Shown: positions 48,344 through 63,911, numbered from the stretch's first letter. The stretch is 64,000 nucleotides of DNA from Flavobacteriaceae bacterium (GCA_965659665.1 CBFHWU010000002.1:12336-76335), one strand, 5' to 3'. Numbers and translations are program-made. The notes: generated by a model not told the origin, from the letters alone.

Positions 48344-49121
48344 AGGATGTTGTTTGAAAAAAGCCAATTCATACCCCAAAAAAAAAGGAATGCGTAAAAA
48401 CGTTAAGTTGTTGAAAATACATCAGTAGGTTGTTAGATTTTAAAGATAGTTGATTTTTGAAACTACACAAATTTTTTTCTATTATTCCATCCGTTTTGAT
48501 GGGTGATTTAAAGGAATTGAGTCTATTATTTTTTTGTCATCGTCACCATTTTGACATGAGATTAATGCATTTAACATAAAAAAAAAATATTTAATTTTTT
48601 CGTTCCAACAATTTTTTCGTTCATATTTCTCCGTTAGCGAGCATTATATTCCGTCATTCAAATATGTCAAATTACTACTATTTGAGTTTATTTTTTCTAT
48701 GATTGGTCTAAAGTATTATATACACTTACATTCTTTATTAAAGAAGTGGGGTTTTCGAAATTAAAACCAATAAAATCATTAAAACATGATGGAGCTGCTG
48801 AAATAATCTCATCATTTGAAATGCTAAAACAGCCTCCTCTAGGAGGATTACCACTGCCACTTTCCGAAAAATATTTTATTGTTGAACTACAATTATTTGT
48901 TGCAGTAACCCTGCCGTTAAAAGTCCATTTATTTGTTCCTCCTACAACATGTGTAGAATACATAACTTGATTTTGTGATATAGTACGTTGACTAGAAACT
49001 TTTTGCCATCATGTATTAGATAAATTTTGTTTGTTCGCATTTTTAATAGCTACATCATATGCAACGGTCTTGTATAAGAACAGTAGCAGAGTAAATTTGC
49101 TATTACTTTCCGATTGAAAAT

Positions 49122-49175
49122 AAAAATAGCAGAAAAGACGAAACCTTTGGCTTAAAACTCTTTACTGCTATTTTT
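49122..49175 (-). terminator. possible bidirectional hairpin terminator downstream of the T9SS cargo gene
   Basis: An 11-bp perfect stem AAAAATAGCAG / CTGCTATTTTT (49122-49132 with 49165-49175) is flanked by A/T runs. The 32-nt loop is long, so the call is weak. Confidence 0.3.
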
Positions 49176-49206
49176 TTATATACCTTGTTAGCAAACGTTG
49201 TTTTAT

Positions 49207-49908
49207 TTATTCTTTTATGAATTTAATCGTATTTCCATTGACAAATTTTAAAAAATAAAGTCCGTTAGGGAAATTTATAATATCAATTTGTTCATTGTTA
49301 GACATAAATCCTTTTTTAATTTCAACCCCCAAAATATTATAAATTCTATAATTCTCTTTGTTAGTCAATCCAGAAACTTTAATAAATTCACTTGATGGGT
49401 TGGGAAATAATTTAATACTATTCTTTAATTCAAATTCGCTAGTGCTTAGAGCTTGGTTAGTAGAACGCTGATATGTAAATCCACCACCAGCACCACCTGA
49501 TGTCCAAGCAGTTATTTTAGTGTCAATATAAATGTCATCATTTATTAAGTGAAGTACTGCATCAACGTTTATTAGACTTTCAGGATTAGATGAATGAGCA
49601 TTATCCCATGTGTCAAATGTTAATGTGCCTACTCCATCAGCAATAGTACCAATTGCCCACTCTGTATCTATCGGACTAGTATAATTGGCATTGTCAAATA
49701 CAGTTTCTTGTGCAATGTTAAAAATTCCCTTATTATCAGCTCTAGTTAAAATAACGTTGGCTGTAAGAGCGTCTTGATTTGCTGGTAGTGTCCAATCAGC
49801 ATAATCTGCTTTTGTCAATGTAATAGTAGGCCCTGTCCATTCAGTTTGACCATATATCTGATTAAAACTGAAAATAAAAATTGTCACTAAAATGTAAATC
49901 TGTTTCAT
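49207..49908 (-). CDS. secreted protein with a T9SS C-terminal sorting domain
   Basis: A signal peptide begins at ATG 49908 (MKQIYILVTIFIFSFNQIYGQ). The C-terminus has the Por-secretion-tail pattern (KLFPNPSSEFIKV...GLYFLKFVNGNTIKFIKE). The upstream in-frame extension to 50124 runs through palindromic non-coding DNA. Confidence 0.75.
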   Translation of the reverse strand: MKQIYILVTIFIFSFNQIYGQTEWTGPTITLTKADYADWTLPANQDALTANVILTRADNKGIFNIAQETVFDNANYTSPIDTEWAIGTIADGVGTLTFDTWDNAHSSNPESLINVDAVLHLINDDIYIDTKITAWTSGGAGGGFTYQRSTNQALSTSEFELKNSIKLFPNPSSEFIKVSGLTNKENYRIYNILGVEIKKGFMSNNEQIDIINFPNGLYFLKFVNGNTIKFIKE

Positions 49909-49953
49909 TGTGTAAATTTTAATTATTAATATTCTGTTTTTAATGTTTGCTAA

Positions 49954-50141
49954 CGCCCGGCTAAACGCAGTGGGGTTCTGGATGTTGAGTTTTTCGAGTT
50001 TACTCGATAAAACACAACATACAATAAGCACCTTATCAAATTGTGATTTAGCCATTGATGTGGCATCGTTTTCTCTCGATGGGCAGTTAAAGCTGTATGT
50101 TAAATTATAGATCATAGCGAGCAATTTGGTTTAGCGGGGCG
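49954..50141. repeat. long-range 13-nt inverted repeat CGCCCGGCTAAAC / GTTTAGCGGGGCG (one mismatch)
   Basis: Read directly: the arms are 49954-49966 and 50129-50141. The right arm abuts the 82-nt structured repeat. It is flanked by CTAAC (49950-49954) and GTTAG (50226-50230). Confidence 0.6.
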
Positions 50142-50224
50142 ATGTAGCACATTTCCAAAGGGACGGGAGCGCGTCAACGGCGTGCGTAGTAACTTTGGTC
50201 AGCTTTTGCTGAATGTGCTACATC
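50141..50224 (+). repeat. GC-rich self-folding repeat, copy A (candidate att/attC-like site or small structured RNA)
   Basis: GATGTAGCACATT...AATGTGCTACATC closes a three-way-junction fold. It is 77/82 identical to 62749-62830 and far more GC-rich than its surroundings. Confidence 0.7.
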
Positions 50225-50550
50225 GGTTAGTATATGAAAAGCAGCGGGCTTTAAGCACTAACTTTTCGTTTTATAACTGACCTTTATGTTATTATTTATC
50301 TTTCCTTTAAGCACCAAAACCGCTATTTTTTTATATACCGCTTAGGTTTGTCTTTTAATAACTTAGACACTTAAACAGAAAGAATAAAAGAGAGCATTAA
50401 GGTTACTATATACGGTGAAGCTTTAGACTTCGACAATATTGATAATCCTCTTTCTTTTCTACTAAAAATCACGTTCAGTTCTGTGAGACTTTGATCTCGA
50501 TTTCAAGTTGTTGTGAATTGAGTAGATTATTCTTTCAACAATCAATAGTT

Positions 50551-50829
50551 ATGAATAAATATAATGAAACTTTTGGAATAGACATCAGTAAAGATGTTTT
50601 TGATTGTTATGGCAATGTTCAAGGTCATTTGCAATTTAACAATAGTGAAACAGGTTTTAAGAAGTTTCAAGAATTACTATCTAAAGATAGTTTGGTAGTA
50701 ATGGAAGCTACCGGTTATTATCATTACAGATTTGCCCAATTTTTGTATCTGTATTATAGGTTAAGTAGTAAGTTAAATCTAAAAATAATGAACCAAAAAC
50801 GCTTAATTAAAAAATTATGCCTCGCATAA
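50551..50829 (+). mobile_element. IS110-family (DEDD) transposase, N-terminal remnant only
   Basis: MNKYNETFGIDISKDVFDC...LVVMEATGYYHYRFAQFLY matches the IS110 N-terminal RuvC-like domain. Homology ends near 50745 and the ORF runs into unrelated sequence. About 75% of the gene is missing. Confidence 0.75.
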
Positions 50830-50864
50830 TAGTGTCTAAAATTCATTAAGAAAAGAGTTGTTTT

Positions 50865-51626
50865 TTAGCTCAGTTCTTTGTTGGCGATTTTTTTTATTCT
50901 ATTAAATAGTCTTTTTACCTGCAAATCCCCGAAACCGTATATACTCTCTCTTTTATTAAATTCTTTGAATACAGGCCCAAATTCTTCTGTTTTGAGTTCT
51001 TCTATTATCGCTAGCAATGATTTAACTGGTCTGCCTGGATATCCCTTGGTTGGTTTTCGCTCAATATGCGCTTCCACAGAGGGTAAAATAAATGGGTAAA
51101 TGGATTCTAGATCTCGTGCTGTGTTAATTAACTTTTCTAAATCGTCATTTTGATAAGAGACCCAAAGACTCGCAATTTTATTAAGCTTTGTTAGTGTCAA
51201 CTTGTTTTCATAAATGGAAATTAATTCAGACTGATTTAATCCTCCGAAGCCATATTGATTATGTGATTCAGGTCTAATGAGATAAATTGCATTCTTCTGA
51301 TTTCTTTTAGTCAAAAGATTTGCAACGAACCAAAAGTTTACTTGACAAAACAAATCATCCTCAAACCACAAATTAATATCAGAATTGTCATTTATGCTCA
51401 TTATTTTCTGGAACTCAGAAACCACTTTGTCATAATAGCCTTGTTCGGTTTCGCCATAACTCTGACTAAGAAATTTGGCTCTTGAACAAAACAACTCGTC
51501 TAGGTGATTTCCTTTCGCATTCCCATCCACAAAGCATTCTCGAATTACAATAATTTCCCCATCAATGTTTTCAGGGAACTCTTGTTTAAGGGAATCTCCG
51601 TTTAATATGTGGTATTGTTTTTTCAT
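50865..51626 (-). CDS. DUF1835-like protein
   Basis: 253-aa ORF whose N-terminus YHILNGDSLKQEF...IVIRECFVDG resembles DUF1835. There are no other recognisable motifs. Confidence 0.5.
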   Translation of the reverse strand: MKKQYHILNGDSLKQEFPENIDGEIIVIRECFVDGNAKGNHLDELFCSRAKFLSQSYGETEQGYYDKVVSEFQKIMSINDNSDINLWFEDDLFCQVNFWFVANLLTKRNQKNAIYLIRPESHNQYGFGGLNQSELISIYENKLTLTKLNKIASLWVSYQNDDLEKLINTARDLESIYPFILPSVEAHIERKPTKGYPGRPVKSLLAIIEELKTEEFGPVFKEFNKRESIYGFGDLQVKRLFNRIKKIANKELS

Positions 51627-51672
51627 CCTTTAATAATTGCTATCGACGGTTTTTAAAAGCGTAGAGGTGAGG

Positions 51673-52554
51673 TTATGCGCCATTTTCGCTTATACTTTGT
51701 TGTAGGTGGTTTTTTATTAATTTTCGATAATATCTTGTAAGTATCCTTTCAACTTTATTATCAGGAATTTCTTTTGAAATATTCATACCGTTTATCCAAA
51801 TTTTGGTTTTACTGTCTGATATTTTTTCAAGTGCAAATTGAAAATGTGTGAGTGTGTCTGTACCGATTATTATTCTATCAATTTTATAATATGGATAATT
51901 ATTCATCCAATTACTCGTGCTGTCTCTCCAGTAATACTCAAATCTATATCCTTCTTTAATCGGTAAACTGTCCATACTGACTGCATAATTGTTTTTCTTC
52001 AATATTTCTAATAATTCAGACTTACCATATTTTACAGTTTTGGTACATTTAAAGCATTTCAATTCTCCGTCTGAATAGGTGTATTTGTAATAAGCAGGTG
52101 GAGATGTAGCGATAAATATTATAGTAGCCGGAAGAAGTAGAATAACTGGATTTAAGCCTTTTACTTTAATTTTTAGTTTCTCAAATTCATTTATTTTATA
52201 CAAAAAAAAGTAAGAAATAGGTAAAAAACATAAAGCTACTAAATCCGAATAGTCAACTACTCTTGTAATTTTAATTAAAGTGATCTGATTGTAACCATCA
52301 ATAAATGATTGAGAAACTGGTGATTTCCAAAATATAAAGAAGAGACCAGTTAGAATTACATTTGTCTTTTTTGACCTAGGGAAAAGATATGTCAAAACCA
52401 TCGGCAAAATAAGAACTCCAATAAAATCAGATAATTTTCCAGTCAACCAATTGGAATATTCCAGCTTTAAATAATGGTCGTTAGTCAATAGAACTATTAA
52501 TCCTATTATAAAGACCAAATTCTGTAAATAATATTTTCGGTTTTCTCTGTTCAT
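51673..52554 (-). CDS. hypothetical integral membrane protein
   Basis: 293-aa ORF with about 5 predicted TM segments in the N-terminal 150 aa, followed by a soluble C-terminal domain. No family recognised. Confidence 0.55.
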   Translation of the reverse strand: MNRENRKYYLQNLVFIIGLIVLLTNDHYLKLEYSNWLTGKLSDFIGVLILPMVLTYLFPRSKKTNVILTGLFFIFWKSPVSQSFIDGYNQITLIKITRVVDYSDLVALCFLPISYFFLYKINEFEKLKIKVKGLNPVILLLPATIIFIATSPPAYYKYTYSDGELKCFKCTKTVKYGKSELLEILKKNNYAVSMDSLPIKEGYRFEYYWRDSTSNWMNNYPYYKIDRIIIGTDTLTHFQFALEKISDSKTKIWINGMNISKEIPDNKVERILTRYYRKLIKNHLQQSISENGA

Positions 52555-52776
52555 AAATCAAATACATCGTGTTTGTGTATGGTTTGTTGCGTGTTTTAAG
52601 CACCTAATTTAGCAAAAGGAAACCGAATAGAAAATCCGCGAGGATTTCAGAAGTAAGCCAGAACAATGCATAAAAAAAACATTAAATCGAGGAACCATAA
52701 GATTAATCAAACAGTAAATATTTGGTTTTAAGAAAACAGTACTGGAATTTTATAGGAGTGATTTTGCTAAGAAGTA

Positions 52777-53709
52777 TTAATTTTTCATTCCTATTTCTTT
52801 TAATTTTTTATTTAGAATTAATGATGCTTTCCTAGCCCCATTGTGGTTTAAATGATCTGCATCATAAAAATCAAAATAATCAAAACTTTCATGTTGAATC
52901 ATATTGTAATAAGTAACATGCTGGTTCAAACTATCCAAATAAGCGAGTGTATTGGTCATTTTATCTTTCTTTTTGGGATTTAATAGATCATAAAATTTTT
53001 TTGTATTGGGTAACGTTAGCAACACGATTTTTATGTCCTTATCATGACAATATTTAATCATGTTATCCAACAAAACTAAATTTTCCTCAAAATCAAATAG
53101 ATGATCTTCAATCGCTATAGCTCTTTTTTGAATTAAATCATCCGAAAGTCTTTGCTCCGAATAATCTCTATAATTAATTCCAAAACCAGAATCATTGCAA
53201 TTTGTAATCGATCCATCTTTTATATACCGGATGAATAATTTAACATTAGATCTTAAGCCTCTTGTGAAAGAAATGAAATAATTTCTTTTATCAAAAACAG
53301 AATTATTGGGAATCTCTACATTCATATAATGTTGATAATAATATTTTCTCCATATATTTTCTTTGTTTTCAACAAGTTCAGCAAGTGTAGTGTACTCAAT
53401 ATGTAAGATAATGCATTTTAAATTTTTAAATTTTGGGATATGTTTATCAAATAATAATTTATCATAATATAAAGTTTGACTTATCAAAGAAAAATTATAG
53501 GTAGAAAAATCGATATATTTAGGATTAATGCCATAAAACGGATGCGAATTACCGAAGACTAATATTTCAGCTTTATCATACTGAAATTGAATATCATGCG
53601 CTTTTTTTGTATAATCATTTTCAGCTGCTCTGTAAAAACATTCAAAGAAGAGGATCAGGATTACAATTGGTAAGATAAAAAGGAAGAGTTTTTTATATTT
53701 ACGAATCAT
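52777..53709 (-). CDS. membrane-anchored protein coupled to the MBOAT (DltD/AlgJ-like partner role inferred)
   Basis: 310-aa ORF with a single N-terminal TM. It starts 12 nt after the MBOAT stop. The function is inferred from gene pairing only. Confidence 0.55.
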   Translation of the reverse strand: MIRKYKKLFLFILPIVILILFFECFYRAAENDYTKKAHDIQFQYDKAEILVFGNSHPFYGINPKYIDFSTYNFSLISQTLYYDKLLFDKHIPKFKNLKCIILHIEYTTLAELVENKENIWRKYYYQHYMNVEIPNNSVFDKRNYFISFTRGLRSNVKLFIRYIKDGSITNCNDSGFGINYRDYSEQRLSDDLIQKRAIAIEDHLFDFEENLVLLDNMIKYCHDKDIKIVLLTLPNTKKFYDLLNPKKKDKMTNTLAYLDSLNQHVTYYNMIQHESFDYFDFYDADHLNHNGARKASLILNKKLKEIGMKN

Positions 53710-53721
53710 TGATTCCGAGAG

Positions 53722-55116
53722 TTAAAATTGAAAATAAATAAATTTTTGATCCGAATTATGGTAATGTAAAATTAGAAAAACAGCTAGATAATACATCCCA
53801 TATCTGATCATATGCTTGGAATAAAGCATATTAAAATAATTTTTGTGAAATCTAAATAAGAACTCACCACAAAAAGATGCACCTATTAAAAAAAGTAAAG
53901 CTTTAGGCAAAACATCAGGGAATTTAAAAGTTGACCAATCAAACAAATACCCTATGTAGGCAATTGAATGTGTCAAATTTTCTGAACGAAAAAAAATCCA
54001 TGCAAAGGAAACAAAAAGAAATGTTGTTATTGTAGCTAAAAAATCTGAACTTTTATTTTGGTATGAAGGAAAAAGCGATGAAACATAAAAACCAAAAAAA
54101 TGAAGTAAACCCCAGGCTACAAAGGTCCAATTTGCACCATGCCAAACCCCACTTATTAGAAATACAATAAAAACGTTTCTGAAGGTAATAATCTTATTTT
54201 TTTTGTTCCCGCCTAGTGGAATGTATACATAATCTTTAAACCAACTGCTTAATGAAATATGCCACCTGCTCCAAAATTCTTTGAGGTTGGCCGAAAAATA
54301 AGGCATTTTAAAATTATACATTAAATTAAACCCCAACATTTTAGCAATGCCTACCGCCATATCAGAATAGCCAGAAAAATCTCCGTAGATTTGAATACTA
54401 AAAAGAAAAACCCCTAAAGCGAGTGTACTTGAATTATAATTTTCATAATTAAAGAAAATATCATCTACATATACAGAGCATTGATCAGCGATTACGACTT
54501 TTTTAAAAAGCCCCCATAAAAATAATTTTAAACCAAATGAAAAATTTCTAGGATGAAGGAATCTTTTTTTTTCAATTTGGGTTAATAAATCCTTTGCGCG
54601 CTCTATTGGTCCTGCGATCAATTGCGGAAAAAAACCCACAAAACACAGAAATGAAATTAAATCGTTAGTGGGTCGAATTCTTTTCTTGTACACATCTATG
54701 GTATAACTTAATGTTTGAAAGGTGTAAAAACTTATCCCTAAAGGTAAAATTAATTCTAGGTAATGAATAGTAACTCTAATACCAAAAAATGTCAGCGAAT
54801 TAGTTACATTTTCTATAAAAAAATTATAATATTTAAAAGTAATTAACACACCAATATTAATAATTACACTAAACAAAAGATATCTTTTTTTTACATGTTG
54901 TCTTGTCTCATGGTATATTTTTTGGCCCATATTATAATCTAATAATGAACTAAAAATTATTAACGCGAGATAACTCCAATGCCAATAACCATAAAAAAAA
55001 TAACTAAACAATAGTAATAAAAGGTTTTGTTTTTTTAAGTCTTTATTAAAAACAAACCAATATAAAGTGTAAAAAACAATAAAAAAAACTCCAAAATCTA
55101 CTGAATTAAAAAGCAA
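53722..55116 (-). CDS. MBOAT-family O-acyltransferase (AlgI/DltB-like)
   Basis: 464-aa polytopic ORF with the MBOAT His motif RWHISLSSWFKDYVYIPLGG. It has an apparent TTG start (MLFNSVDF). Confidence 0.85.
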   Translation of the reverse strand: MLFNSVDFGVFFIVFYTLYWFVFNKDLKKQNLLLLLFSYFFYGYWHWSYLALIIFSSLLDYNMGQKIYHETRQHVKKRYLLFSVIINIGVLITFKYYNFFIENVTNSLTFFGIRVTIHYLELILPLGISFYTFQTLSYTIDVYKKRIRPTNDLISFLCFVGFFPQLIAGPIERAKDLLTQIEKKRFLHPRNFSFGLKLFLWGLFKKVVIADQCSVYVDDIFFNYENYNSSTLALGVFLFSIQIYGDFSGYSDMAVGIAKMLGFNLMYNFKMPYFSANLKEFWSRWHISLSSWFKDYVYIPLGGNKKNKIITFRNVFIVFLISGVWHGANWTFVAWGLLHFFGFYVSSLFPSYQNKSSDFLATITTFLFVSFAWIFFRSENLTHSIAYIGYLFDWSTFKFPDVLPKALLFLIGASFCGEFLFRFHKNYFNMLYSKHMIRYGMYYLAVFLILHYHNSDQKFIYFQF

Positions 55117-55309
55117 AATATTACAATAAGTAAGTGAAAATATGTAAAAAAGACTATACTATCAATATTGTTTATGTTTTAAATAAATTATATTAAATAA
55201 ATATAGCTAAATCGATAAAAAATAACATTAATTTTTTGAGCAAAAACCCAAATTATAGCATTAAAAAATATCGCTGTAACTAAGGCTATACCTCATAAAA
55301 AGTGTGTAT

Positions 55310-55854
55310 TTATTTTTTGGTTATTTCGTAGCAAAAATGTTTTTCGTATGCAGGATGATTAATCATTTCAGGATGATTGAATTCTCTCTTTTTTTGTCAT
55401 TCCTATTTTCTTCATAACATTTTGGGATTTATTATTCTTTATCGGGCAGACTGATATTATTTTATTTATACCTAATTCATTAAATGCATATTCAAGACAT
55501 TTCTTTCCACCTTCTGTTGCATATCCTTTTCCCCAGGCATTTCTTTTTAATCTCCAACCAATATCAATTGCAGGAGTAAATGTTGTTTTATAATCTTGAA
55601 ATGCAAGACCTATCATTCCAATAAATTCATTTGTTTCTAATATTTCAGCTGCGTAGTATGTGAATCCATTTTTAGCAAAATGGTTTCTGAGTTTATCTAT
55701 GAGTTTCTCAACTTCTTTTTTCGATAGTGTATTTCGGAAAGTGTTCCATTACATCTTCATCAGAATTTAACTTTGCAAATTCTTCCAAATCTTCGTTTCT
55801 CCATTTTCGAAAACCTAATCTCTCTGATTTAAATATGTATTCGCTTTTATTCAT
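55310..55854 (-). pseudogene. GNAT (RimJ/RimL-like) N-acetyltransferase disrupted by two homopolymer frameshifts
   Basis: Own translation gives three frame segments. The first is MNKSEYIFKSERLGFRKWRNEDLEEFAKLNSDEDVMEHFPKYTIEK. After a shift at the T6 run near 55725 it continues EVEKLIDKLRNHFAKNGFTYYAAEILETNEFIGMIGLAFQ...KIGMTKK. After a shift at the T7 run near 55391 it ends REFNHPEMINHPAYEKHFCYEITKK. Confidence 0.75.
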
Positions 55855-55878
55855 TTTTAAATGGAAGCTAACCCAGTG

Positions 55879-57294
<1,416 letters not shown>

Positions 57295-57354
57295 TTAATA
57301 ACACATAAGGGTTTGGAGTATGTAGAGTGGCGAGCTATTTCCCAACATATTTTT

Positions 57355-57897
57355 TTATATATATATGGTGTCGTTATTTTTAAAATTCCTTATCAGCTCC
57401 AAGTCAGTTAATTTAACTCCACGAAATGTTAGAACTTCAAGATTTTCATGTTGTGACACACTTTCTAATCCTTTTTTCATTCCATCAACATAGAAATATT
57501 TTAAATCCTTTAGGTCAGAGACAAAACTTAAATCAATAGCTACAGATTTTGTTTCGCCAATACTCAGTGCTGTCAGTTTAAGATAGTCACGAATTGGAGT
57601 AAAATCTGTAGTCATATAAGATGAAATAGTGAATTTTTTTACAGCTTGTAAATACTTTAAAAAGTTAAAATCCACTGTGTCATCCCACGAAATTCGTAAT
57701 CTTATATCAGGATATTTTTTGTAGAAGTTATTGAGAACTTTCCAAGTTTTTTTGTTTGGGTTTTTAAATTCAAAAAACTGAATTGTATGGATATTTGGTT
57801 CTTTTATCAATTTTGAAATATCAGAATTCCTGAGATTATTATAGATGTTGATATTCCCACTGAAATTTTTCCAATTTTTTTGTTCAATTAATTTCAT
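57355..57897 (-). CDS. hypothetical protein with leucine-rich-repeat-like periodicity
   Basis: 180-aa ORF with repeated L..L..L/F segments in the C-terminal half (LKLTALSIGE, LKDLKYFYVDG, LEVLTFRGVKLTDLELI). No family recognised. Confidence 0.5.
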   Translation of the reverse strand: MKLIEQKNWKNFSGNINIYNNLRNSDISKLIKEPNIHTIQFFEFKNPNKKTWKVLNNFYKKYPDIRLRISWDDTVDFNFLKYLQAVKKFTISSYMTTDFTPIRDYLKLTALSIGETKSVAIDLSFVSDLKDLKYFYVDGMKKGLESVSQHENLEVLTFRGVKLTDLELIRNFKNNDTIYI

Positions 57898-57975
57898 TTA
57901 GTATTCGGTTTCTGTAATGCACTACATCGGTTTTGTTTATGATACCTACCCTGAAAAGGGTGTGTGCTAAACAGC

Positions 57976-58701
57976 TTATTTTGGCGTTATTATTTTTATT
58001 GTTTTTTTATTTTCTACTGTTATTTCTGAGCCTTCAACTAACATTACCGAAATTGGTTTGGTTGAATTTAGAAATTCGAATTCCTTTCCGTACACAGTAC
58101 CAAAGTTTATATCAATTTCATAATTAGTCACTTTATAGGCTTCCCACTTTGGGTGGGTAACTTCATATTCATTGGATTTAGTACGATTTACTTTTGCATA
58201 GCCCCAATAGTGTTCTGTAATAAATTCTATCTCACTATTTGATTCTATATTGAATTTTTCAATACTTGCATCAATTTTTATAAAATTCCATTTATTTGAT
58301 TTTTTCCATCTGTATTGCACAGTTCTTTGTTTGTGGTTTGAACTCCAAGAGTGTTCCATTGGCAATGTTTCATAATTTTCATTATACACTGTATTTGCCA
58401 CAAAAGTCAAAGCTCGTTTCGGAACAATTTCTTTGATAAATACAACTCCTCTTTTCCATTCTCGATTGTCAAATCGTTTAACGTAGAATCGTAAATTAAC
58501 TTCTTCGAAGTTTGAATGAAATGGAATTTTAACCCCTAATAGTTTAGTATTTAAAAACATAAATCCGACTAAGCTAACATAGCATTTTCCATTCCACAAG
58601 TCTAATTCGGTACCAACAGGAAGATATTTGTCAAGTAGTTGCTTATCAATGATATAATTCGCTAATGCGAGTTTTCTCCATTCTGCTTTTATAAAGCTCA
58701 T
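57976..58701 (-). CDS. DUF2071-family (YqjF-like) protein
   Basis: 241-aa ORF whose N-terminus AEWRKLALANY...LDLWNGKCYVSLVGFMF and NLRFYV are typical of DUF2071. Confidence 0.65.
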   Translation of the reverse strand: MSFIKAEWRKLALANYIIDKQLLDKYLPVGTELDLWNGKCYVSLVGFMFLNTKLLGVKIPFHSNFEEVNLRFYVKRFDNREWKRGVVFIKEIVPKRALTFVANTVYNENYETLPMEHSWSSNHKQRTVQYRWKKSNKWNFIKIDASIEKFNIESNSEIEFITEHYWGYAKVNRTKSNEYEVTHPKWEAYKVTNYEIDINFGTVYGKEFEFLNSTKPISVMLVEGSEITVENKKTIKIITPK

Positions 58702-58782
58702 ATCGTTTCGTTTTAGTTGCCCTAAGGGTTTGTGTCGTTTATTATTAAAAAGTGTAAAAACACTGCTTCAGTTTGTCTTTTG

Positions 58783-59367
58783 TTAAATTGAAGCTAATGT
58801 TAATATTTCAGGGTATGTTCCTTTCCCCTTGTTCAGAAAGTCTACCCCTTGTTTTATTCGTTTGTTTAATTGTTTAGATCCTGGTCTTTGGCTTAATAAA
58901 TCTTCAATTTCATTCATATATTTTTTAGCAGTTTTATGATTTTTATTTTCAACGTTTAAAGCAGCAATAAAAAGTTTGAAGTCCATTTCATTCACAAAAA
59001 AACGCACTCCCTTGTTCATTAATTTTCGATGTTTCTTTATTATTTTTTTACTGTCCCTTACATTCAACCACTTGGATAATGATGAGCAGTAAAATTCATT
59101 TACGTCTGAATAATGTTTTTCGAAGTAATACCAAAGAGAATCAAGTCTTCGAATTAAAGTTTTGTGTGTGTCTTTGATATCATATTTCCATTAAAAAAGT
59201 AGTTATAAGAACCCCCAGCGTTTATACCAGTAAAATTTTGTTTATTTATTTGATTAGCATAAACAGTATTAGCAGAAAGTATTTTATAATTTGCTGCATT
59301 CTTTTCCTTCTAGTTCTAATTTAAGGTCAAGAACTGCGCCTTTAAAAGTAATTTCGATTTTGTTCAT
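58783..59367 (-). pseudogene. hypothetical gene split over three frames (two single-base frameshifts)
   Basis: Own translation gives three frame segments from ATG 59367. They are MNKIEITFKGAVLDLKLELEG, then KNAANYKILSANTVYANQINKQNFTGINAGGSYNYFF, then WKYDIKDTHKTLIRRLDSLWYYFEKHYSDVNEFYCSSLSKWLNVRDSKK..., which runs to the stop at 58783. The shifts fall at short A/T runs. Confidence 0.5.
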
Positions 59368-59384
59368 ATGTATTTGGTTTTAAT

Positions 59385-60104
59385 TTATGTGCTAAGTGGT
59401 AAATCTCTTTCACCGTATGTGTAAGAACTACTTCCTAAGTTTGATATATTGTTGATGTTGCCTACGTTGAACTCAGACTCCCAAGGGTCAAGCAGCCTTT
59501 CGTTAGGGCTAAACCCTGTAAAATCCCCAGTTTTATTTTCATTTCCTGTAATACTTTGCCAGTCATTCCAAATTCTATCAACATTCGCATGATGAAGCCA
59601 GAATAATGGATCTCTTGGGGAGAACATAGGGTTACCCATTATTCCACCAACAAAATTATGCCCCCTGTTATGTGGTCCAACTTCTAGTTGTTTAGTAAAC
59701 GAATAAAAGTCAGAATTAGATAGAATCGTAGTTATTTCGCTTTCATCTGTAAAATCAACATTTCTTATATGTCGGTTATTATTTGGAAGGGCTGTAATTT
59801 TACTTGGGATTTGTGTGTCTTTTGTCCAATCCCAATATGGTATAAAAACACTTGGGTTAATTCTTTGCAAAGCTCTTTCAAAGACAAGTAGATAGGCTCT
59901 ATGCCAGGGTAAAAATCTAAGAAACCCTAATCTTCCTGACATACTACCATGCATTCTATGCCTAGCCATGAAACTTGTTCCCATTGCAGCATGATGCATG
60001 ACAAATGACTCATATAATCCATCATTGAATAATTTTTCGACTGCCGAATTAAAATTTAACCAATCTTCATCGGTCATTTGCTTAGAACTTTTTCTTATTG
60101 TCAT
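59385..60104 (-). CDS. small type-3 copper protein (tyrosinase / polyphenol-oxidase family)
   Basis: 239-aa ORF with a CuA region (HH..M...FLPWHRAYL) and a CuB region (HNRGHNFVGG...DPLFWLHHANVDRIW). No signal peptide is visible. Confidence 0.82.
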   Translation of the reverse strand: MTIRKSSKQMTDEDWLNFNSAVEKLFNDGLYESFVMHHAAMGTSFMARHRMHGSMSGRLGFLRFLPWHRAYLLVFERALQRINPSVFIPYWDWTKDTQIPSKITALPNNNRHIRNVDFTDESEITTILSNSDFYSFTKQLEVGPHNRGHNFVGGIMGNPMFSPRDPLFWLHHANVDRIWNDWQSITGNENKTGDFTGFSPNERLLDPWESEFNVGNINNISNLGSSSYTYGERDLPLST

Positions 60105-60130
60105 TTTATAGTTTATTTAGTTTTTAATTT

Positions 60131-60194
60131 GCTACAACGGTTTGAATATGGTGCGTATCCCGCAGGGTATGCATTATACACCTTGTTGTAGGGC
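60131..60194. repeat. 64-nt imperfect palindrome with AAC...GTT outer boxes (attC-like candidate)
   Basis: The outer box CTACAAC (60132-60138) pairs with GTTGTAG (60185-60191). Two bulged T bases follow. The central stem is GCGTATCC/GGGTATGC, with two G.T pairs that exist only on the plus strand. Confidence 0.5.
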
Positions 60195-60199
60195 GTTTT

Positions 60200-60778
60200 T
60201 TATTCAATAATATCTTCAAAGATTATTTCATTTTTTACTTTGCTAATTGAAATTCTCCTAAAAGCCGGAGCATAACCTTTTTGTCCACTTGGTTCGCAAT
60301 ATTCTCTAACAAAAGCAAATTCAGTTTCATAGTTTTGAATCACTTTGGGTCCAAAATATCTTTTGTCCGACATATAAAGCACCTCTTCAACAGAATTATT
60401 TTCCGCTTGAAAATTGTCCGAGTTTTTGATTTTGTTAACAGCATTATTTTTATCTCTTTCAGATATTTCTAAAGTGAAAGTATGGTAATAATCACCTATT
60501 GCTGACATGGATTCATTATTAACAAGTTCGAACTCGTCAATTAGTTCCATTCCTTGTTCTTCAATAAGTCTTTTTGCATTATTCTCAGTAAAAAGCTGAT
60601 CCTCAAAAACTATGAAGAATGTAATTGCTAGTACAATTAAGCCGTATCCAATTATAAGATATGTTGAGGCCTTTGGATATCCAAGCCGTTTAGGAATGAA
60701 ATATAGGAGAAGTCCAACTCCGACAGGTATTCCTATAAATACAAGCATTAATAAACCTATGAATAGATATTCGTCCAT
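60200..60778 (-). CDS. hypothetical membrane protein (2 N-terminal TM segments)
   Basis: 192-aa ORF with no recognisable family. Confidence 0.5.
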   Translation of the reverse strand: MDEYLFIGLLMLVFIGIPVGVGLLLYFIPKRLGYPKASTYLIIGYGLIVLAITFFIVFEDQLFTENNAKRLIEEQGMELIDEFELVNNESMSAIGDYYHTFTLEISERDKNNAVNKIKNSDNFQAENNSVEEVLYMSDKRYFGPKVIQNYETEFAFVREYCEPSGQKGYAPAFRRISISKVKNEIIFEDIIE

Positions 60779-60859
60779 TGATATTTCGTTTTTTTTAATG
60801 CCCTACTAGTGTGTATATACTCCTTTAGGGGTGTTTATTTTCGTTATGTTTTTGTTTTT

Positions 60860-60898
60860 GTTCAACAATACTTCCCCAATCAGCATGTATTGTTGAAC
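60860..60898. repeat. perfect 12-bp stem / 15-nt loop hairpin at the 3' boundary of recombinase remnant 1
   Basis: GTTCAACAATAC-N15-GTATTGTTGAAC, 2 nt beyond the stop of the 60901-61233 ORF. It has the same architecture as 63551-63589. Confidence 0.7.
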
Positions 60899-60900
60899 TT

Positions 60901-61233
60901 TTATTCAATGTAACAATCATCTAAAGGGTTTTTTATTTTTCCAATTTCTTGAACGGAAACCCGTGTATAAAGTTCCGTTGTTTTGCGGCTATTATGCCCC
61001 AATAAAACCTGTATAGGTTTCAAGCTAACCCCCTGTTCCAATAAATGTGTTGCAAAACTATGCCGCAACATATGTGGAGTTACTCTTTTTTGAATTCCAA
61101 CAAGTTTAGCTTTGACTCCCTCGGGTTGTGTTTGTTTTTTGACCAAATCCAATAACGCCTTGTCATAAGCAAAATCTAGTTTTACAATAGCTTGTTGTTT
61201 GTGAACGTCGGGTATTAATCGTAGGTTTTTCAT
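60901..61233 (-). pseudogene. tyrosine recombinase remnant (internally deleted: about 35 N-terminal plus about 75 C-terminal residues)
   Basis: The C-terminus [39 protein letters not shown]...KIKNPLDD carries the R-H-x-x-R/H...Y catalytic box. At 110 aa, against the roughly 300+ aa usual for this family, it cannot be functional. Confidence 0.75.
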
Positions 61234-61324
61234 TACTAGAAAACAAATCTGGGGGGTTGTCTATCTCTAAATTTGCAAAAAATTACCAACTTCCAAAATG
61301 TACATGCTGCTTTTCTCTTATGTT
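61221..61324 (-). repeat. 104-nt conserved leader of the recombinase module, copy 1
   Basis: About 90% identical by eye to 63808-63911. It covers the start codon, the first codons and about 90 nt upstream. Confidence 0.8.
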
Positions 61325-61870
61325 TAGCGAATTTATTTGGGGCTTAATCATTTTCAAAAGTCCAATTCACCTCCATCAGAATGCTTATCATCCGTATAAT
61401 GGTAAGGAAAATATTTTTTACACACGCTCATTAGGGGTTAATGAGCACAAAACAAGGGTGAACGGTATGTTTTTGTATGGAAATGGTCATTATTAACCTG
61501 ATAAAAGCTGTAGGTAAAATCCTACATTTAGATCGTGAGACAACTCATCAAATTGAACGTTAAATATTAAAAAATAAAAGGAAAACAGAGGTTTTAATTA
61601 GCGGTATAGCATATCAAAAGTGACGAACAAAAGCGAGCTATGATTTCTATGTAAAAGATAACACGTTTATTTAAGTTGTAGCAATTGTCTTTATTTCTAT
61701 TATCATTTTTAAAAAATTAATGTTTCATCATTAAAAACTTGTAGGCTACATCTATTTAAAAATTATTTTTTTTTTATATTTGAGAAACCCAAATTTTTCT
61801 GACCCATGAAACAATTTACCACTCCATGGTTGTTTTCCCTTTTTTTAGTTGTCGATTTAACTTTCAATTA

Positions 61871-62572
61871 ATGAAAAAGAAATTAAGATTAATCGTAGAG
61901 GACAACAATTCTAAAAAAGGAAAATTATTTAATTATTTTATACAGGCATTGGTTATCCTGTCACTTATTTCATTTGCTGTCGAAACTTTGCCCAGCATTT
62001 CACCAAACGCAATCGATATGCTTAATGATTTTGAATTGTTTTGCGTATTGGTGTTTACGTTAGAATATTTGTTAAGGATTTATGTGTCAAAAGAACCTTT
62101 AAAATATATATTTAGTTTTTATGGAATTATTGACCTTTTAGCTTTTTTTCCATTTTATTTCAGATTAGCCTATGATTTTAGAGCTTTACGTATTTTTCGG
62201 ATTTTTAGAGTATTAAAACTAATCCGTTATAAAAAAACGCTTTACAGATTCCATATTGCTGCTAAAATAGTTAAAGAGGAGATGATTTTGTTTTTTTTTG
62301 TTACCTCAATATTCATATTCCTTGCATCGGCAGGTATTTACTTTTTTGAAAATAAAGCGCAGCCCGAATTATTTAGCTCTATATTTCATAGTGGTTGGTG
62401 GGCTATAGCAACATTAACGACAGTTGGTTATGGCGACGTTTATCCTATTACTATGGGGGGGAAAATATTTACTTTTTTTATTCTTTTAATTAGTATTGGA
62501 GTGGTTACAGTTCCGGCAGGATTAATTGCCAGTGCTTTATCTAAAGCACGTGAAATAGAAGAAAAAAATTAA
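61871..62572 (+). CDS. voltage-sensor-type K+ channel, accessory-region paralog (no zinc-ribbon tail)
   Basis: S4-like RALRIFRIFRVLKLIRY and filter TTVGYGD. ATG 61871 (MKKKLRLIVEDNN) is preferred over the 61826 extension. Confidence 0.82.
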   Translation: MKKKLRLIVEDNNSKKGKLFNYFIQALVILSLISFAVETLPSISPNAIDMLNDFELFCVLVFTLEYLLRIYVSKEPLKYIFSFYGIIDLLAFFPFYFRLAYDFRALRIFRIFRVLKLIRYKKTLYRFHIAAKIVKEEMILFFFVTSIFIFLASAGIYFFENKAQPELFSSIFHSGWWAIATLTTVGYGDVYPITMGGKIFTFFILLISIGVVTVPAGLIASALSKAREIEEKN

Positions 62573-62746
62573 ACAAATTGTTTTTAACTAATCAATCTTA
62601 AAAGAACTTTAAAAGGTATTAAAACTAGCGTTACCATGTGTGGTTAATTACGTTGGCTAGGACTAGTTAATAAACAAAAACGAACAATAGGAAAATCCGT
62701 AGGATTATCCGAATACACACAAACAAAACAATTGACTATACTCCGT

Positions 62747-62830
62747 GTTGTAGCACGTTTCCAAAGGGACGGGAGCGCGCCAACGGCGTGCGTAGTAACT
62801 TTAGTCCGCTTTTGCTGAATGTGCTACACC
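62747..62830 (+). repeat. GC-rich self-folding repeat, copy B
   Basis: It has the same orientation as copy A. There are 5 differences in 82 aligned nt by manual alignment. Confidence 0.7.
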
Positions 62831-62946
62831 GTTCAGATAAGCTCAGTGAGCATATCCATTCGGGATGATTTTAAAGTTGATATCTTGCACTAAAATGTGT
62901 TTACGGTTCAGTTTGCTCATTAAGCTTATTGTTTGTTATCAGCATC

Positions 62947-63324: not shown

Positions 63325-63561
63325 TATTTTGAGGGGATTATAATTTGTTTTGATATAATTTGTTTGTTGCTTCAATAAATATACCGTAAGCTTCAAGCTA
63401 CTTAAATTTATTAAGGAAACCTTATCATCAATTTCTTTTTGAAAAACATGATTACCCAATAAATCAGTTACGATTACATTAAATTTTAAGTCCTCATTAT
63501 AATAGCTTACAAAATCAATAAATAAGACATTATTAGTCACGGGGTTAGGAGTGTTGTTTAG
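63325..63561 (-). pseudogene. remnant of a T9SS C-terminal sorting domain (body of the gene missing)
   Basis: LNNTPNPVTNNVLFIDF...VIVTDLLGNHVFQKEI...INLSSLKLTVYLLKQQTNYIKT fits the Por-secretion-tail pattern. There is no upstream cargo domain and no stop of its own. It reads straight into the lipoprotein ORF. Confidence 0.45.
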
Positions 63562-63589
63562 CTTACTTTTTCGGAGGGCTAAACAACAC
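63551..63589. repeat. perfect 12-bp stem / 15-nt loop hairpin at the 3' boundary of recombinase remnant 2
   Basis: GTGTTGTTTAGC-N15-GCTAAACAACAC. The arm sequence resembles the 60860-60898 arms (9/12) but in flipped arm order. Confidence 0.7.
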
Positions 63590-63820
63590 GTTATTATTTT
63601 TTTGAATTCCTAAAGAATCAAAAGGATTCTTTATATTTTCAAACCCTTTTTTCGTAATATGTATAAAGTTTTCAGTGGTCTTGCTACTACTATGCCCTAA
63701 TAATTCTTGAATATATCCTATGTCTGTCCCTTGTTTAATTATGCGAGTAGTAGTAAGCGTACCTGTGTTTAAAGTTGCTAATCGTCGCCGGAATTCAGGA
63801 ATGAGTAGTAGGTTTTTCAT
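63563..63820 (-). pseudogene. tyrosine recombinase remnant 2 (more degraded)
   Basis: MKNLLLIPEF... then GTDIGYIQELLGHSSSKTTENFIHITKKGFENIKNPFDSL. It has the same N-terminal codons and C-terminal box as remnant 1 but is only 85 aa. Confidence 0.7.
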
Positions 63821-63911
63821 TACTAGAAAACAAAACTGGGGGGTTGTCTACCACTAAATTAGCAAAAAATTACCAACTCCCAAAATGTACATGCTGCTTT
63901 TCTCCCATGTT
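63808..63911 (-). repeat. 104-nt conserved leader of the recombinase module, copy 2
   Basis: Aligned by eye with 61221-61324, including the shared string ctggggggttgtcta and ccaaaatgtacatgctgcttttctc. Confidence 0.8.

Follow-up and report, generated by a model that had tools for sequence, protein, structure and literature searches.

What are two nearly identical, self-folding direct repeats doing on either side of 12.7 kb of DNA that contains a recombinase relic? The question is raised by the window, that is, the whole 64,000-nt stretch analysed here, from a Flavobacteriaceae bacterium (GCA_965659665.1 CBFHWU010000002.1:12336-76335). The two repeats, and the longer unit to which one of them belongs, are as follows (arrows mark junctions).

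50141-50224, plus strand: copy A, the 82-nt hairpin (50143-50224 as the 82-nt repeat)
50141-50152/50213-50224 (P1), 50155-50160/50193-50198 (P2), 50169-50175/50179-50185 (P3), 50199-50203/50208-50212 (P4): helices of copy A
62749-62830, plus strand: copy B, with start box, cargo (58 nt) and end box as in A; P2 and P4 disrupted
49952-50224, plus strand: the whole ORF-less cassette (hereafter the module), 273 nt, in cassette sense ↓ATGTAGCACAT...GTTTAGCGGGGCG↓

As the initial annotation had described, A and B lie on the same strand and agree at 77 of 82 positions, the five differences (A/B) being 50151 A/G, 50174 T/C, 50197 G/A, 50201 A/C and 50223 T/C. Their 31-nt core occurs twice in the window, against none expected from 100 shuffles, and both are indeed GC-rich islands (51-55% GC) in AT-rich DNA (31% for 48-64 kb). 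The RNA fold of copy A (-43.4 kcal/mol, z -6.45, 0 of 200 shuffles as good) is a three-way junction of P1 to P4, and its minus strand folds less well (-31.7). The same junction had been proposed for B, whose minimum-energy structure (-33.3, z -2.2) differs because one substitution in P2 and another in P4 disrupt these helices, as had already been noticed. A comparison with Rfam, also suggested at the outset, gave no match to the window at gathering score, nor at E<=10 over 50050-50320, and no tRNA or tmRNA gene was found by ARAGORN.

The similarity was said to stop at both ends of the element. This is true of A against B, whose 40-nt flanks are unrelated (15/40 and 11/40 matches), but not elsewhere: in other genomes homology to A runs about 190 nt further left, to 49952. 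The search of relatives that had been recommended thus found the module, which contains A, at full length (273 nt) and 89.7-91.6% identity in five Formosa-like contigs other than the window (L001, L009, L010, L011, L012). The DNA on both sides of it is unrelated across these five contigs. Read in the cassette (minus) sense, copy A is the first part of the module, whereas the sequence following copy B in that sense, AAC ACGGAGTATAG..., is like the start of an ordinary hairpin site and unlike the 190-nt domain. There is no ORF support in the module, and in the translations inspected almost all differences between copies alter the amino acid.

The kind of unit that the module may represent can be seen from related loci. 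In intact relatives, a gene for an Xer-like tyrosine recombinase is followed by an attI-like point (...ATATACACTA↓G) and then by co-directional genes. The sequence ...ATATACA(C/A)TA↓G occurs in nine loci, before differing first cassettes or the 273-nt unit; in L016, L018, L015 and L021/L024, ...ATATACA(C/A)TA↓GTTxxxx leads directly into the first gene. Each cassette starts with TT and 7-9 specific bases, and ends with an imperfect hairpin site (xxxxxxxAAC ... AACC G↓TTxxxxxxx); its first 10-12 nt are the reverse complement of the box (specific bases plus AAC) at its own hairpin. Start box and own end box correspond at 11/12 positions in the window, L009 and L001 and at 10/12 in L010. The same rule is obeyed by cassettes 1 and 3 of L016, cassette 1 of L018, three cassettes of L021/L024 and five successive cassettes of Labilibaculum antarcticum AP018042. 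Comparison of the loci shows this complementarity as the trace predicted for a cassette that was a circle when it recombined at G↓TT. Imperfect hairpin sites of attC type, so judged by structural resemblance and not by a model hit, are present in L016, L018, L021/L024, L027 and the window, and at least two co-directional downstream genes with conserved intergenic repeats in L016, L018, L021, L024 and L027. In five of six ordinary sites the bottom strand folds better than the top. The bottom-strand folds have an outer and an inner stem separated by an asymmetric internal loop; the inner stem contains a single bulged base and is capped by a variable loop. The Pfam families of the cargo (ten window ORFs and related loci) include DUF1835, DUF2071, tyrosinase, peptidase C92, ParDE, a beta-lactamase fold and TonB_C, and general Pfam recognised no immunity families in this set.

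The corresponding features of the window suggest that it, too, probably carries such a cassette array, which occupies about 49.05-63.8 kb of the minus strand and is now decayed, with two recombinase relics.

49049-49072, minus strand: junction box CAAGACCG↓TTGCATATGATGTAGC
49107-49198, minus strand: hairpin site of the T9SS-protein cassette (arms 49122-49138 and 49159-49175)
49943-49954, minus strand: junction of the module with the next cassette, start box GTTAGCAAACAT; the next gene (49207-49908) encodes a T9SS-tail protein
50224-50346, minus strand: long-class hairpin site preceding module A in cassette sense, ending ...TTTTCATATACTAACC↓G
50551-50760, plus strand: relic of an IS110-family DEDD transposase, N-terminal fragment only, adjoining the 50224-50346 site and outside the repeat
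51647-51709, minus strand: hairpin site, end box CCACCTACAAC ... AAAAACCG↓TCGATAGC, coordinates derived by hand from the printed sequence
52559-52582, minus strand: junction end of a long-class site, CCATACACAAACACG↓ATGTATTTG
57898-57975, minus strand: degenerate site separating the DUF2071 cassette from the ORF that follows, junction ...AACAAAACCG↓ATGTAGTGCAT (the motif at 57917-57933)
60131-60194, minus strand: short-class hairpin site, GCCCTACAAC AAGGTGTATAATGCATACCC TGC GGGATACGCACCATATTCAAACC G↓TTGTAGC (the motif at 60131-60141)
60806-60898, minus strand: platform remnant, with the conserved hairpin of the recombinase 3' end (60860-60898) and an attI-like junction ATATACACACTA↓G (60806-60818)
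60901-61233, minus strand: tyrosine recombinase relic 1, 110 aa, internally deleted
62830-62940, minus strand: hairpin site preceding copy B (arms 62837-62852 and 62914-62929), end ...CTTATCTGAAC G↓GTGTAGCAC
63563-63820, minus strand: tyrosine recombinase relic 2, 85 aa

The GC content of 48-64 kb is 31.2%, against 35.8% for the remainder of the window. The end box of the T9SS cassette, ACGTTTGCTAAC (49187-49198), is complementary to its start box at 11 of 12 positions, and arm 50319-50339 of the long-class site is 95% identical to 49164-49184. At the far end of the array, the contig of a 99.8%-identical relative begins at 49064, precisely where the G of the predicted G↓TT point is followed by its first T. 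The initial annotation had also seen the end motif of the repeats standing alone at 57917-57933 and, as a 5' arm, at 60131-60141. These occurrences are real (ATGYRCTACANCGKT has seven matches with at most two mismatches, 57917 and 60127 among them, against 1.5 expected), and both belong to ordinary cassette junctions. As for the recombinase relics reported in the flanked block, relic 1 lies inside the interval and relic 2 beyond it. The 5' region of relic 2 (63768-63911) duplicates 61181-61324 at 83%, and therefore two platforms would stand in tandem. There is no intact recombinase in the window; the start-box/end-box rule fails for the DUF2071 cassette and for the cassette at 51673-52554, and the attI junction is 3 nt short. 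It is important to note that, the array being decayed, this reading of the window leans on the related loci.

How well does the module fit a cassette slot? Only 58 nt separate its start box (G)ATGTAGCACAT from its end box ATGTGCTACAT(C), and because the cargo between them is so short, the two boxes pair as stem P1. The end box continues into a second 12-bp stem, helix 1 (49955-49966 with 50129-50140), which abuts P1 directly and closes a structured arc of 165 nt, and the unit ends in ...GGGACG↓TT. When the two ends are joined, they form a perfect 24-bp inverted repeat, GTTTAGCGGGACGATGTAGCACAT / ATGTGCTACATCGTCCCGCTAAAC. In L001, L009 and L011, the attI sequence is followed by ↓GATGTAGCAC...module...GGGACG↓TT and then by a gene; in L010 the attI match is shorter and more diverged (...ATATATACAA↓G), and a recombinase relic adjoins the module. 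Thus far, the module is the first cassette in four of seven placements. In the others it stands behind the hairpin site of another cassette, namely in window copy A (...TAACC↓G), in L012 (...CTAGC↓G) and in the second copy of L009 (...GAAAC↓G), where two copies have one 309-aa gene between them. The module also has features of its own: its junction is G↓AT (G↓GT in B) and not the usual G↓TT, it has neither the AACC spacer nor the internal loop of ordinary sites, and its end box, once integrated, pairs poorly with the start of the next cassette. Other parsings of it are a pair of hairpin units without genes, or a hairpin of 106 nt with 165 nt of cargo.

We therefore answer the opening question as follows, and consider the answer likely: A and B would be two copies of a small, ORF-less mobile cassette within the decayed integron-like array on the minus strand at about 49.05-63.8 kb. 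The 273-nt unit appears to occupy exactly one cassette slot, with P1 as its pair of start and end boxes. The recombinase would excise and insert it like other cassettes, the substrate being the folded bottom strand, which is the plus strand of the window. A and B may be separate insertions or remnants, in the two tandem platforms, and B may have lost or exchanged the 190-nt part. The earlier suggestion of an attC-like family was near the mark, in that P1 corresponds to a pair of recombination boxes and the solitary motifs to junction boxes of ordinary hairpin sites. The array is, on its predicted features, one that keeps integron cassette rules but uses an Xer-type recombinase without the IntI-specific insertion.

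Why the module is so well conserved is a separate matter, for which a promoter or regulatory cassette, a structured RNA and a purely selfish recombination substrate are candidate reasons. With DNA parameters, its plus strand folds at -57.6 kcal/mol (z -7.8) into 96 base pairs in 273 nt, arranged in 11 helices including the 165-nt arc. In an alignment of six closely related sequences, from which the structure itself was derived, 99% of cells pair, compensatory changes occur at three pairs, and all eight one-sided changes remain paired only as G.T/G.U on the plus strand. The earlier proposal that the plus strand is the folded one is thus strengthened with more sequences.

These data could also mean that the plus strand of the 273-nt unit, or of its 82-nt hairpin, is transcribed into a functional RNA, in the direction of the recombinase gene and antisense to the array; this RNA would travel in a cassette, and the structure would be kept for its sake and not for recombination. 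The strong folds of hairpin and module, the wobble-only and compensatory changes that favour the plus strand across all 11 helices, the 165-nt arc included, and the lack of ORF support are in accord with such an RNA, as is a perfect Bacteroidetes-type -7 box on the plus strand, TAACTTTG, which lies inside the hairpin in six of six full copies and is mutated in B. But no -33 element upstream of this box and no terminator of the module's own were found, Rfam gave no match, and a single-stranded bottom-strand recombination substrate predicts plus-strand folding equally well, the same bias being seen in ordinary sites. On balance, a functional RNA is an unlikely explanation.

We judge it similarly improbable that the unit is a minus-sense promoter or regulatory cassette which, from the first position, drives or modulates the promoterless cassettes downstream. 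Its frequent first position would suit this role, and a gene in the same sense begins 13-44 nt past the unit end in six of six loci, although this distance to the next start codon is the normal cassette layout. In the minus sense, TTG ... TATGTTTT / TATTTTTT, about 60 nt before the module end, is a near-match to the Bacteroidetes -33/-7 in five of six copies; its -7 part has one mismatch, and the window copy is without it. ORF-less integron cassettes with promoter activity are on record, as the study of Tansirichaiya et al. (2019, Sci Rep, PMC6557892) is cited in PMC8618304; they resemble the module in being gene-free and bounded by recombination sites, but reside in IntI integrons. A promoter would leave the 96 bp of conserved structure unexplained.

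A broader and rather speculative version of the cassette reading, to which we give a small chance, is that the unit is more than a recombination substrate, being itself a structured nucleic-acid device (RNA or folded ssDNA) that travels as cargo. It might regulate the recombinase by antisense, or act in cis on expression, and would be spreading between marine flavobacteria as a cassette of an IntI-independent integron analogue. If so, no structured non-coding 'gene' with this kind of mobility would have been known before in Bacteroidota.

The attL/attR explanation, in which the 3' end of a small structured RNA gene has received a 12.7-kb element, is now highly improbable. Several facts are as expected of such an event: the two repeats are direct, there are recombinase relics both inside the interval and outside it, and A stands within a longer conserved non-coding unit of which B is a bare 3' fragment. 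Such an event would also call for a single-copy target, a fixed context and one element, and these were not found: the neighbours of the supposed gene differ on both sides in six genomes, A fills a cassette slot whose junctions coincide with the unit ends, and the L009 copies are only one gene apart. The 12.7-kb interval contains at least six separate hairpin sites or junctions, the attI remnant and one of the two tandem platforms, and therefore is not one element.

Equally remote is the idea that the element is a non-coding end, bridge RNA or target of the adjoining IS110-family IS, or an invertible promoter between the 12-13 bp inverted repeats of helix 1. IS110/IS1111 elements target hairpin repeats, attC included, which counts in its favour, as do the DEDD transposase relic that begins 327 nt right of A and the inverted repeat that helix 1 forms around 165 bp just upstream of genes; but an IS end or bridge RNA requires contiguity and co-occurrence with the transposase, and only this relic was found, beyond a long-class hairpin site, B being without an adjoining IS, the ORF lists inspected by eye placing no transposase beside the five other full copies, and the same internal orientation of all six copies therefore giving no sign of inversion.

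With the cassette reading preferred, the nature of the recombinase becomes important. The window relics match full-length proteins of 360-400 aa that pass NF040815 ('site-specific tyrosine recombinase/integron integrase'). Against TIGR02249 these score 211-217 bits, in two stretches, which is below the cut-off of 265, and XerA (4a8e) matches the recombinase equally well. In the alignment to VchIntIA (2a3v), query residues 271-289 lie opposite IntI4 residues 183-244, and therefore the IntI-specific insertion of about 43 aa is missing; an extra N-terminal domain of about 95 aa is present. The insertion is thought to be essential for the handling of attC by IntI. Comparison of the loci shows what appears to be the full cassette logic (hairpin sites, G↓TT junction, cassette-specific start/end complementarity, attI-like point and bottom-strand folding bias) in marine Flavobacteriaceae and a Marinilabiliales genome, here together with an Xer-like recombinase that has no such insertion. 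If experiments bear this out, gene capture by hairpin sites would have a second solution, and the Bacteroidota of ocean and gut would contain a large pool of unexplored cassettes. The gene-less structured cassette offers a handy natural mini-substrate for tests of mechanism and is also a candidate regulatory element. Canonical integrons are reported to be nearly absent from Bacteroidetes (PMC9024848).

The likeness to integrons is extensive. In both, the recombinase gene has an insertion point beside it, and the cassettes arrayed after this point share one orientation and mostly lack promoters; the sites are imperfect hairpins with outer ...AAC / GTT... boxes, a bulged inner stem and a variable top; the junction is G↓TT, each cassette begins with bases complementary to the first box of its own site, and the bottom strand folds better. 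Toxin-antitoxin cassettes occur likewise (ParDE in L016), and the sites of L027, near-identical and about 200 nt long within one genome, are like the VCRs of Vibrio. Gene-less cassettes are found in integrons as well, and we know of no conserved secondary structure as large (96 pairs in 273 nt) in ORF-less integron cassettes. The differences are as clear. IntI has the insertion of about 43 aa, whereas the recombinase here does not, falls under the TIGR02249 cut-off and has the extra N-terminal domain. The integron integrase points away from its array, whereas the recombinase here points into it, co-directional with the cassettes; in Treponema-type integron arrays, where the ORF-less cassettes with promoter activity occur, the integrase has the same direction as the cassettes, as here. 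Unlike in integrons, the attI region holds conserved hairpins, a conserved (A/G)AACC spacer precedes G↓TT, and the complementarity of start and end boxes is cassette-specific over 10-12 nt, in place of a 7-nt consensus. Measured against the definition of an integron, attC-type sites, a GTT cassette boundary and insertion next to attI are all present, but the recombinase falls outside the integrase definition.

The closest described system, when compared by description, appears to be rAID-1 of gut Bacteroidales, the recombinase-associated acquired interbacterial defence arrays (Ross et al. 2019, bioRxiv 10.1101/471110). Their definition asks for an XerD-like recombinase on the 5' side, with 44% identity or more to B. 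fragilis BF9343_RS08045 (Ross et al. 2019), and for orphan T6SS immunity genes in Bacteroidales, a cargo not seen here with general Pfam profiles. The reports on rAID-1 (Ross et al. 2019; PMC12247911) give motif enrichment only; hairpin sites, a crossover point, start/end complementarity and structured cassettes without genes do not figure in them. The repetitive intergenic motifs of rAID-1 were called "reminiscent of integrons" (Ross et al. 2019, bioRxiv 10.1101/471110; PMC12247911). Both systems belong to the same phylum and have AT-rich arrays, and the features that rAID-1 requires downstream of the recombinase, namely at least two co-directional genes, conserved intergenic repeats and low GC, are all found in the loci described here.

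The 273-nt unit at 49952-50224, which lacks an ORF and includes the 82-nt copy A (50143-50224), is probably, on comparative sequence grounds, a cassette without a gene, in which the prominent stems serve as recombination boxes and which a Xer-like recombinase mobilises. The initial annotation had described copy A and copy B (62749-62830) as GC-rich direct repeats whose similarity stops at both ends. The two are indeed near-identical on the same strand (5 mismatches in 82 positions) and GC-rich (51-55% against 31% regionally), and their 31-nt core occurs twice in the window, with no occurrence in 100 shuffles. Their similarity does stop at both ends when A is compared with B (the 40-nt flanks match at 15/40 and 11/40 positions), but elsewhere copy A is conserved with its relatives for ~190 nt more on the left side.

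A 21-mer scan of the genome collection matched one contig (L001, from a Formosa sp. MAG) and a metagenome scan matched four (L009-L012); all five contain the 82-nt element together with the ~190 nt on its left. Over its full length the unit is 89.7-91.6% identical to these relatives, and the DNA on either side is different at every locus. A minus-strand gene begins 13-44 nt past the left end of the unit in each case, and it is a different gene each time. A 12-bp helix (49955-49966 / 50129-50140), with one compensatory change from T-A to C-G, closes an arc of 165 nt and abuts stem P1 of the 82-nt hairpin. In L009 the 82-nt element occurs twice, with one gene between the two copies. Among viral sequences, a 17-mer gave seven chance matches with no similarity beyond them, and a 19-mer of the arc gave no match; Rfam returned nothing across the window at the gathering threshold or around copy A at E<=10, and ARAGORN found no tRNA or tmRNA in the window.

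The surroundings of the unit are those of a cassette (↓ marks the predicted crossover). In L001, L009 and L011, the unit (↓GATGTAGCAC ... GGGACG↓) comes immediately after an attI-like sequence, and TT and the next cassette come after the unit; in L010, the attI-like match is shorter and more diverged (...ATATATACAA↓G), and a recombinase relic lies beside the unit. Platforms without the unit run from the same attI-like point straight into a gene cassette. For copy A of the window, L012 and the second copy in L009, the unit is placed after the end of another cassette's site. Because it follows either the attI-like point or the end of another site, the unit fills exactly one cassette slot and, we infer, would move as a cassette. 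Read in the minus sense, it consists of a start box (ATGTAGCACAT), 58 nt, an end box (ATGTGCTACAT(C)), GTCCCGCTAAAC, 165 nt and GTTTAGCGGGACG↓, and joining its two ends gives a perfect inverted repeat of 24 bp. The start and end boxes lie close together because the cargo (P2-P4) is only 58 nt.

The earlier suggestion of an attC-like family was thus essentially right: P1 is the start-box/end-box pair, and the lone copies of the 3'-arm motif are junction boxes. This motif is enriched in the window (7 matches against 1.5 expected), and its occurrences at 57917 and 60127 belong to the ordinary sites 57898-57975 and 60131-60194.

The rule that governs such cassettes emerges from loci with an intact recombinase gene (L015, L016, L018, L021-L026, and L027 from Labilibaculum antarcticum AP018042). 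Their common layout is a recombinase gene, a conserved 3'-end hairpin, the insertion point ...ATATACA(C/A)TA↓G and then several genes that point the same way. Behind each gene lies an imperfect hairpin site, composed of specific bases plus AAC, AA ... (A/G)AACC G↓TT, specific bases. Each cassette opens with 10-12 bases that are reverse-complementary to the first box in its own site; GTTGTAAATC / GATTTACAAC and GTTAGCAATA / TATTGCTAAC are examples, and L027 adds five cassettes in a row. For the gene beside the unit, the rule holds at 11/12 positions in the window, L009 and L001, and at 10/12 in L010. This complementarity is the footprint that circular cassettes would leave on recombining within GTT, as integron cassettes do. 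In the window, the following sites or junctions share one orientation:

49049-49072, minus strand, site or junction
49107-49198, minus strand, site or junction
50224-50346, minus strand, site or junction
~51647-51709, minus strand, site or junction
52559-52582, minus strand, site or junction

A contig of GCA_042089245.1 (L013), 99.8% identical to the window over 12.3 kb, starts exactly at window position 49064, the first base after a predicted G↓TT. This suggests that the junction varies in its cassettes, within or between populations. A loose regular expression for the junction is by itself not specific for sites, and the centres of six short sites align poorly (MAFFT and RNAalifold, only 9 pairs).

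The cargo is varied. The array region of the window holds a large membrane protein (53722-55116), a gene that we take from its translation to encode an RtcB-like RNA ligase (55879-57282) and a tyrosinase-domain protein (Pfam PF00264; 59385-60104), which are unusually large and diverse for cassettes; several of these genes are without recognisable sites, so cassettes may not account for the whole region. Two orphan boxes, AATTGCTACAAC (61675-61686) and GATGTAGCCTACAAG (61738-61752), lie upstream of the first recombinase relic and are probably remnants of rearranged sites; the tyrosinase cassette opens with the complement of AATTGCTACAAC (GTTGTAGCAAAT, 60131-60142). The array of L016 contains a ParD/ParE toxin-antitoxin pair (13576-14247) that starts only 9 nt past the previous cassette's end box; chromosomal integrons, too, carry toxin-antitoxin cassettes.

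Which strand folds bears on an alternative reading, a plus-strand RNA. Copy A takes up the three-way junction proposed for both repeats, with an RNA fold energy of -43.4 kcal/mol (z -6.45) against -31.7 on the complementary strand; disruptions in both P2 and P4 give copy B a different minimum-energy structure. Across six sequences of the unit, 96 pairs are 99% paired, compensatory changes occur at three pairs, and all eight one-sided changes keep pairing only as G.T/G.U on the plus strand; sliding the pairing partner by 1-3 columns lowers the paired fraction to ~40%. This evidence is supportive rather than decisive, as the set is small, its members are close relatives, and the structure itself came from these sequences. 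With DNA parameters, the bottom strand of the cassettes (the window's plus strand) is more stable than the top in 5/6 ordinary sites. In its fold, an asymmetric internal loop separates the outer stem from the inner one, which has a single bulged base, and the loop at the top is variable. The strand evidence fits a single-stranded bottom-strand DNA substrate, as in integrons, and a plus-strand RNA equally well.

The initial annotation had put first attL and attR of a 12.7-kb island, a reading that same-strand repeats might invite; it is rejected, as the unit fills a cassette slot and its flanking DNA differs at every locus. We instead take copy B for a second copy, now decayed, located in the second of the two platforms that lie in tandem. 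It keeps the start box, cargo and end box of the unit, is preceded by a regular hairpin site (62830-62940) and is followed by sequence that begins like an ordinary site (AAC ACGGAGTATAG); the recombinase 5' regions are duplicated in the window (61181-61324 and 63768-63911). A minus-sense ORF through the 165-nt arc was rejected on inspection of the translations, given ~12 residue differences for ~13 nucleotide changes between the window and L001 and the position where the frame stops, which differs in L009 and L010. An inverton was rejected on the collinearity of 6/6 copies, and an IS110 end or bridge RNA was rejected as the identity of the unit.

Insertion sequences do occur at or beside hairpin sites. 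An IS110-family relic (50551-50760, plus strand) adjoins the site 50224-50346, and in Labilibaculum two DDE_Tnp_1 copies (L027 14264-15811 and 16925 onwards) are inserted immediately behind ...AAGACCG↓TCAGACTG, each at a site of its own. This is reminiscent of the IS1111-attC group, which targets integron attC sites.

The window's recombinase relics (60901-61233 and 63563-63820) match many differently deleted forms of one tyrosine recombinase of 360-400 aa. The recombinase-like matches of 108-140 aa were considered as a conserved small protein family, which was rejected; they are relics, because they carry different internal deletions of that one protein. Scores of the full-length relatives lie above the cut-off of NCBIfam NF040815 ("site-specific tyrosine recombinase/integron integrase"; 233-241 bits against 220) and below that of TIGR02249 (integron integrase; 211-217 against 265). 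Their best solved relatives, XerA (4a8e) and VchIntIA (2a3v), have equal E-values. The IntI-specific insertion is absent, since 18 query residues face 61 of IntI4, and there is an extra N-terminal region of ~95 aa. The system would therefore work like an integron without counting as one, given the integrase criterion that defines integrons.

At the 3' end of the recombinase gene, every platform has a hairpin with a stem of 12-13 bp and a loop of 13-15 nt:

Window 60860-60898 and 63551-63589, recombinase 3'-end hairpin
L016 11109-11147, recombinase 3'-end hairpin
L021 ~11135-11175, recombinase 3'-end hairpin
L027 9095-9135, recombinase 3'-end hairpin

Its stems covary (GTTCAACAATAC / GTATTGTTGAAC, GTGGCACAATACA / TGTATTGTGCCAC, GGTGCACAATACA / TGTATTGTGCACC, GCTAAACAACAC / GTGTTGTTTAGC). 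It looks like a nucleic-acid element, because its place is inside the ORF of some genes (where it is translated as STIHADLGSIVEQ) and past the stop codon of others; it may belong to attI or act as a terminator or regulator. Another small hairpin (CACC-TAAA-GGTG) is found ~12 nt ahead of the insertion point.

A regulatory role for the unit is possible, as it is conserved, often comes first in the array and has more structure than a site apparently requires. A perfect Bacteroidetes -7 box (TAACTTTG, 50190-50197, plus strand), a candidate promoter element, is present in 6/6 full copies and mutated in B; a weaker candidate -33/-7 in the cassette sense occurs in 5/6 copies. In IntI integrons, some cassettes that lack an ORF are known to have promoter activity, according to work cited in PMC8618304.

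The interest lies mainly in the system that the element exposes. Canonical integrons are nearly absent from Bacteroidetes according to IntegronFinder 2.0 (PMC9024848), and in the literature searched no paper paired "attC-like" with Bacteroid*. Recombinase-associated rAID-1 arrays, to which the window's system may belong, have been described in Bacteroidales (Ross et al. 2019, 10.1101/471110), and a 2025 preprint speaks only of conserved intergenic motifs for such arrays (PMC12247911). The element falls within the integron-like recombinase arrays of Bacteroidota, already known as a kind. In L027 (10124-16924), the sites are ~200 nt long and near-identical between cassettes (AAC AAAAGCTAAATTGTCATGGGCG ... 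CGCCCACGAAACTTAGCAAGACC GTT), a species-specific repeat family comparable to the VCRs of Vibrio.
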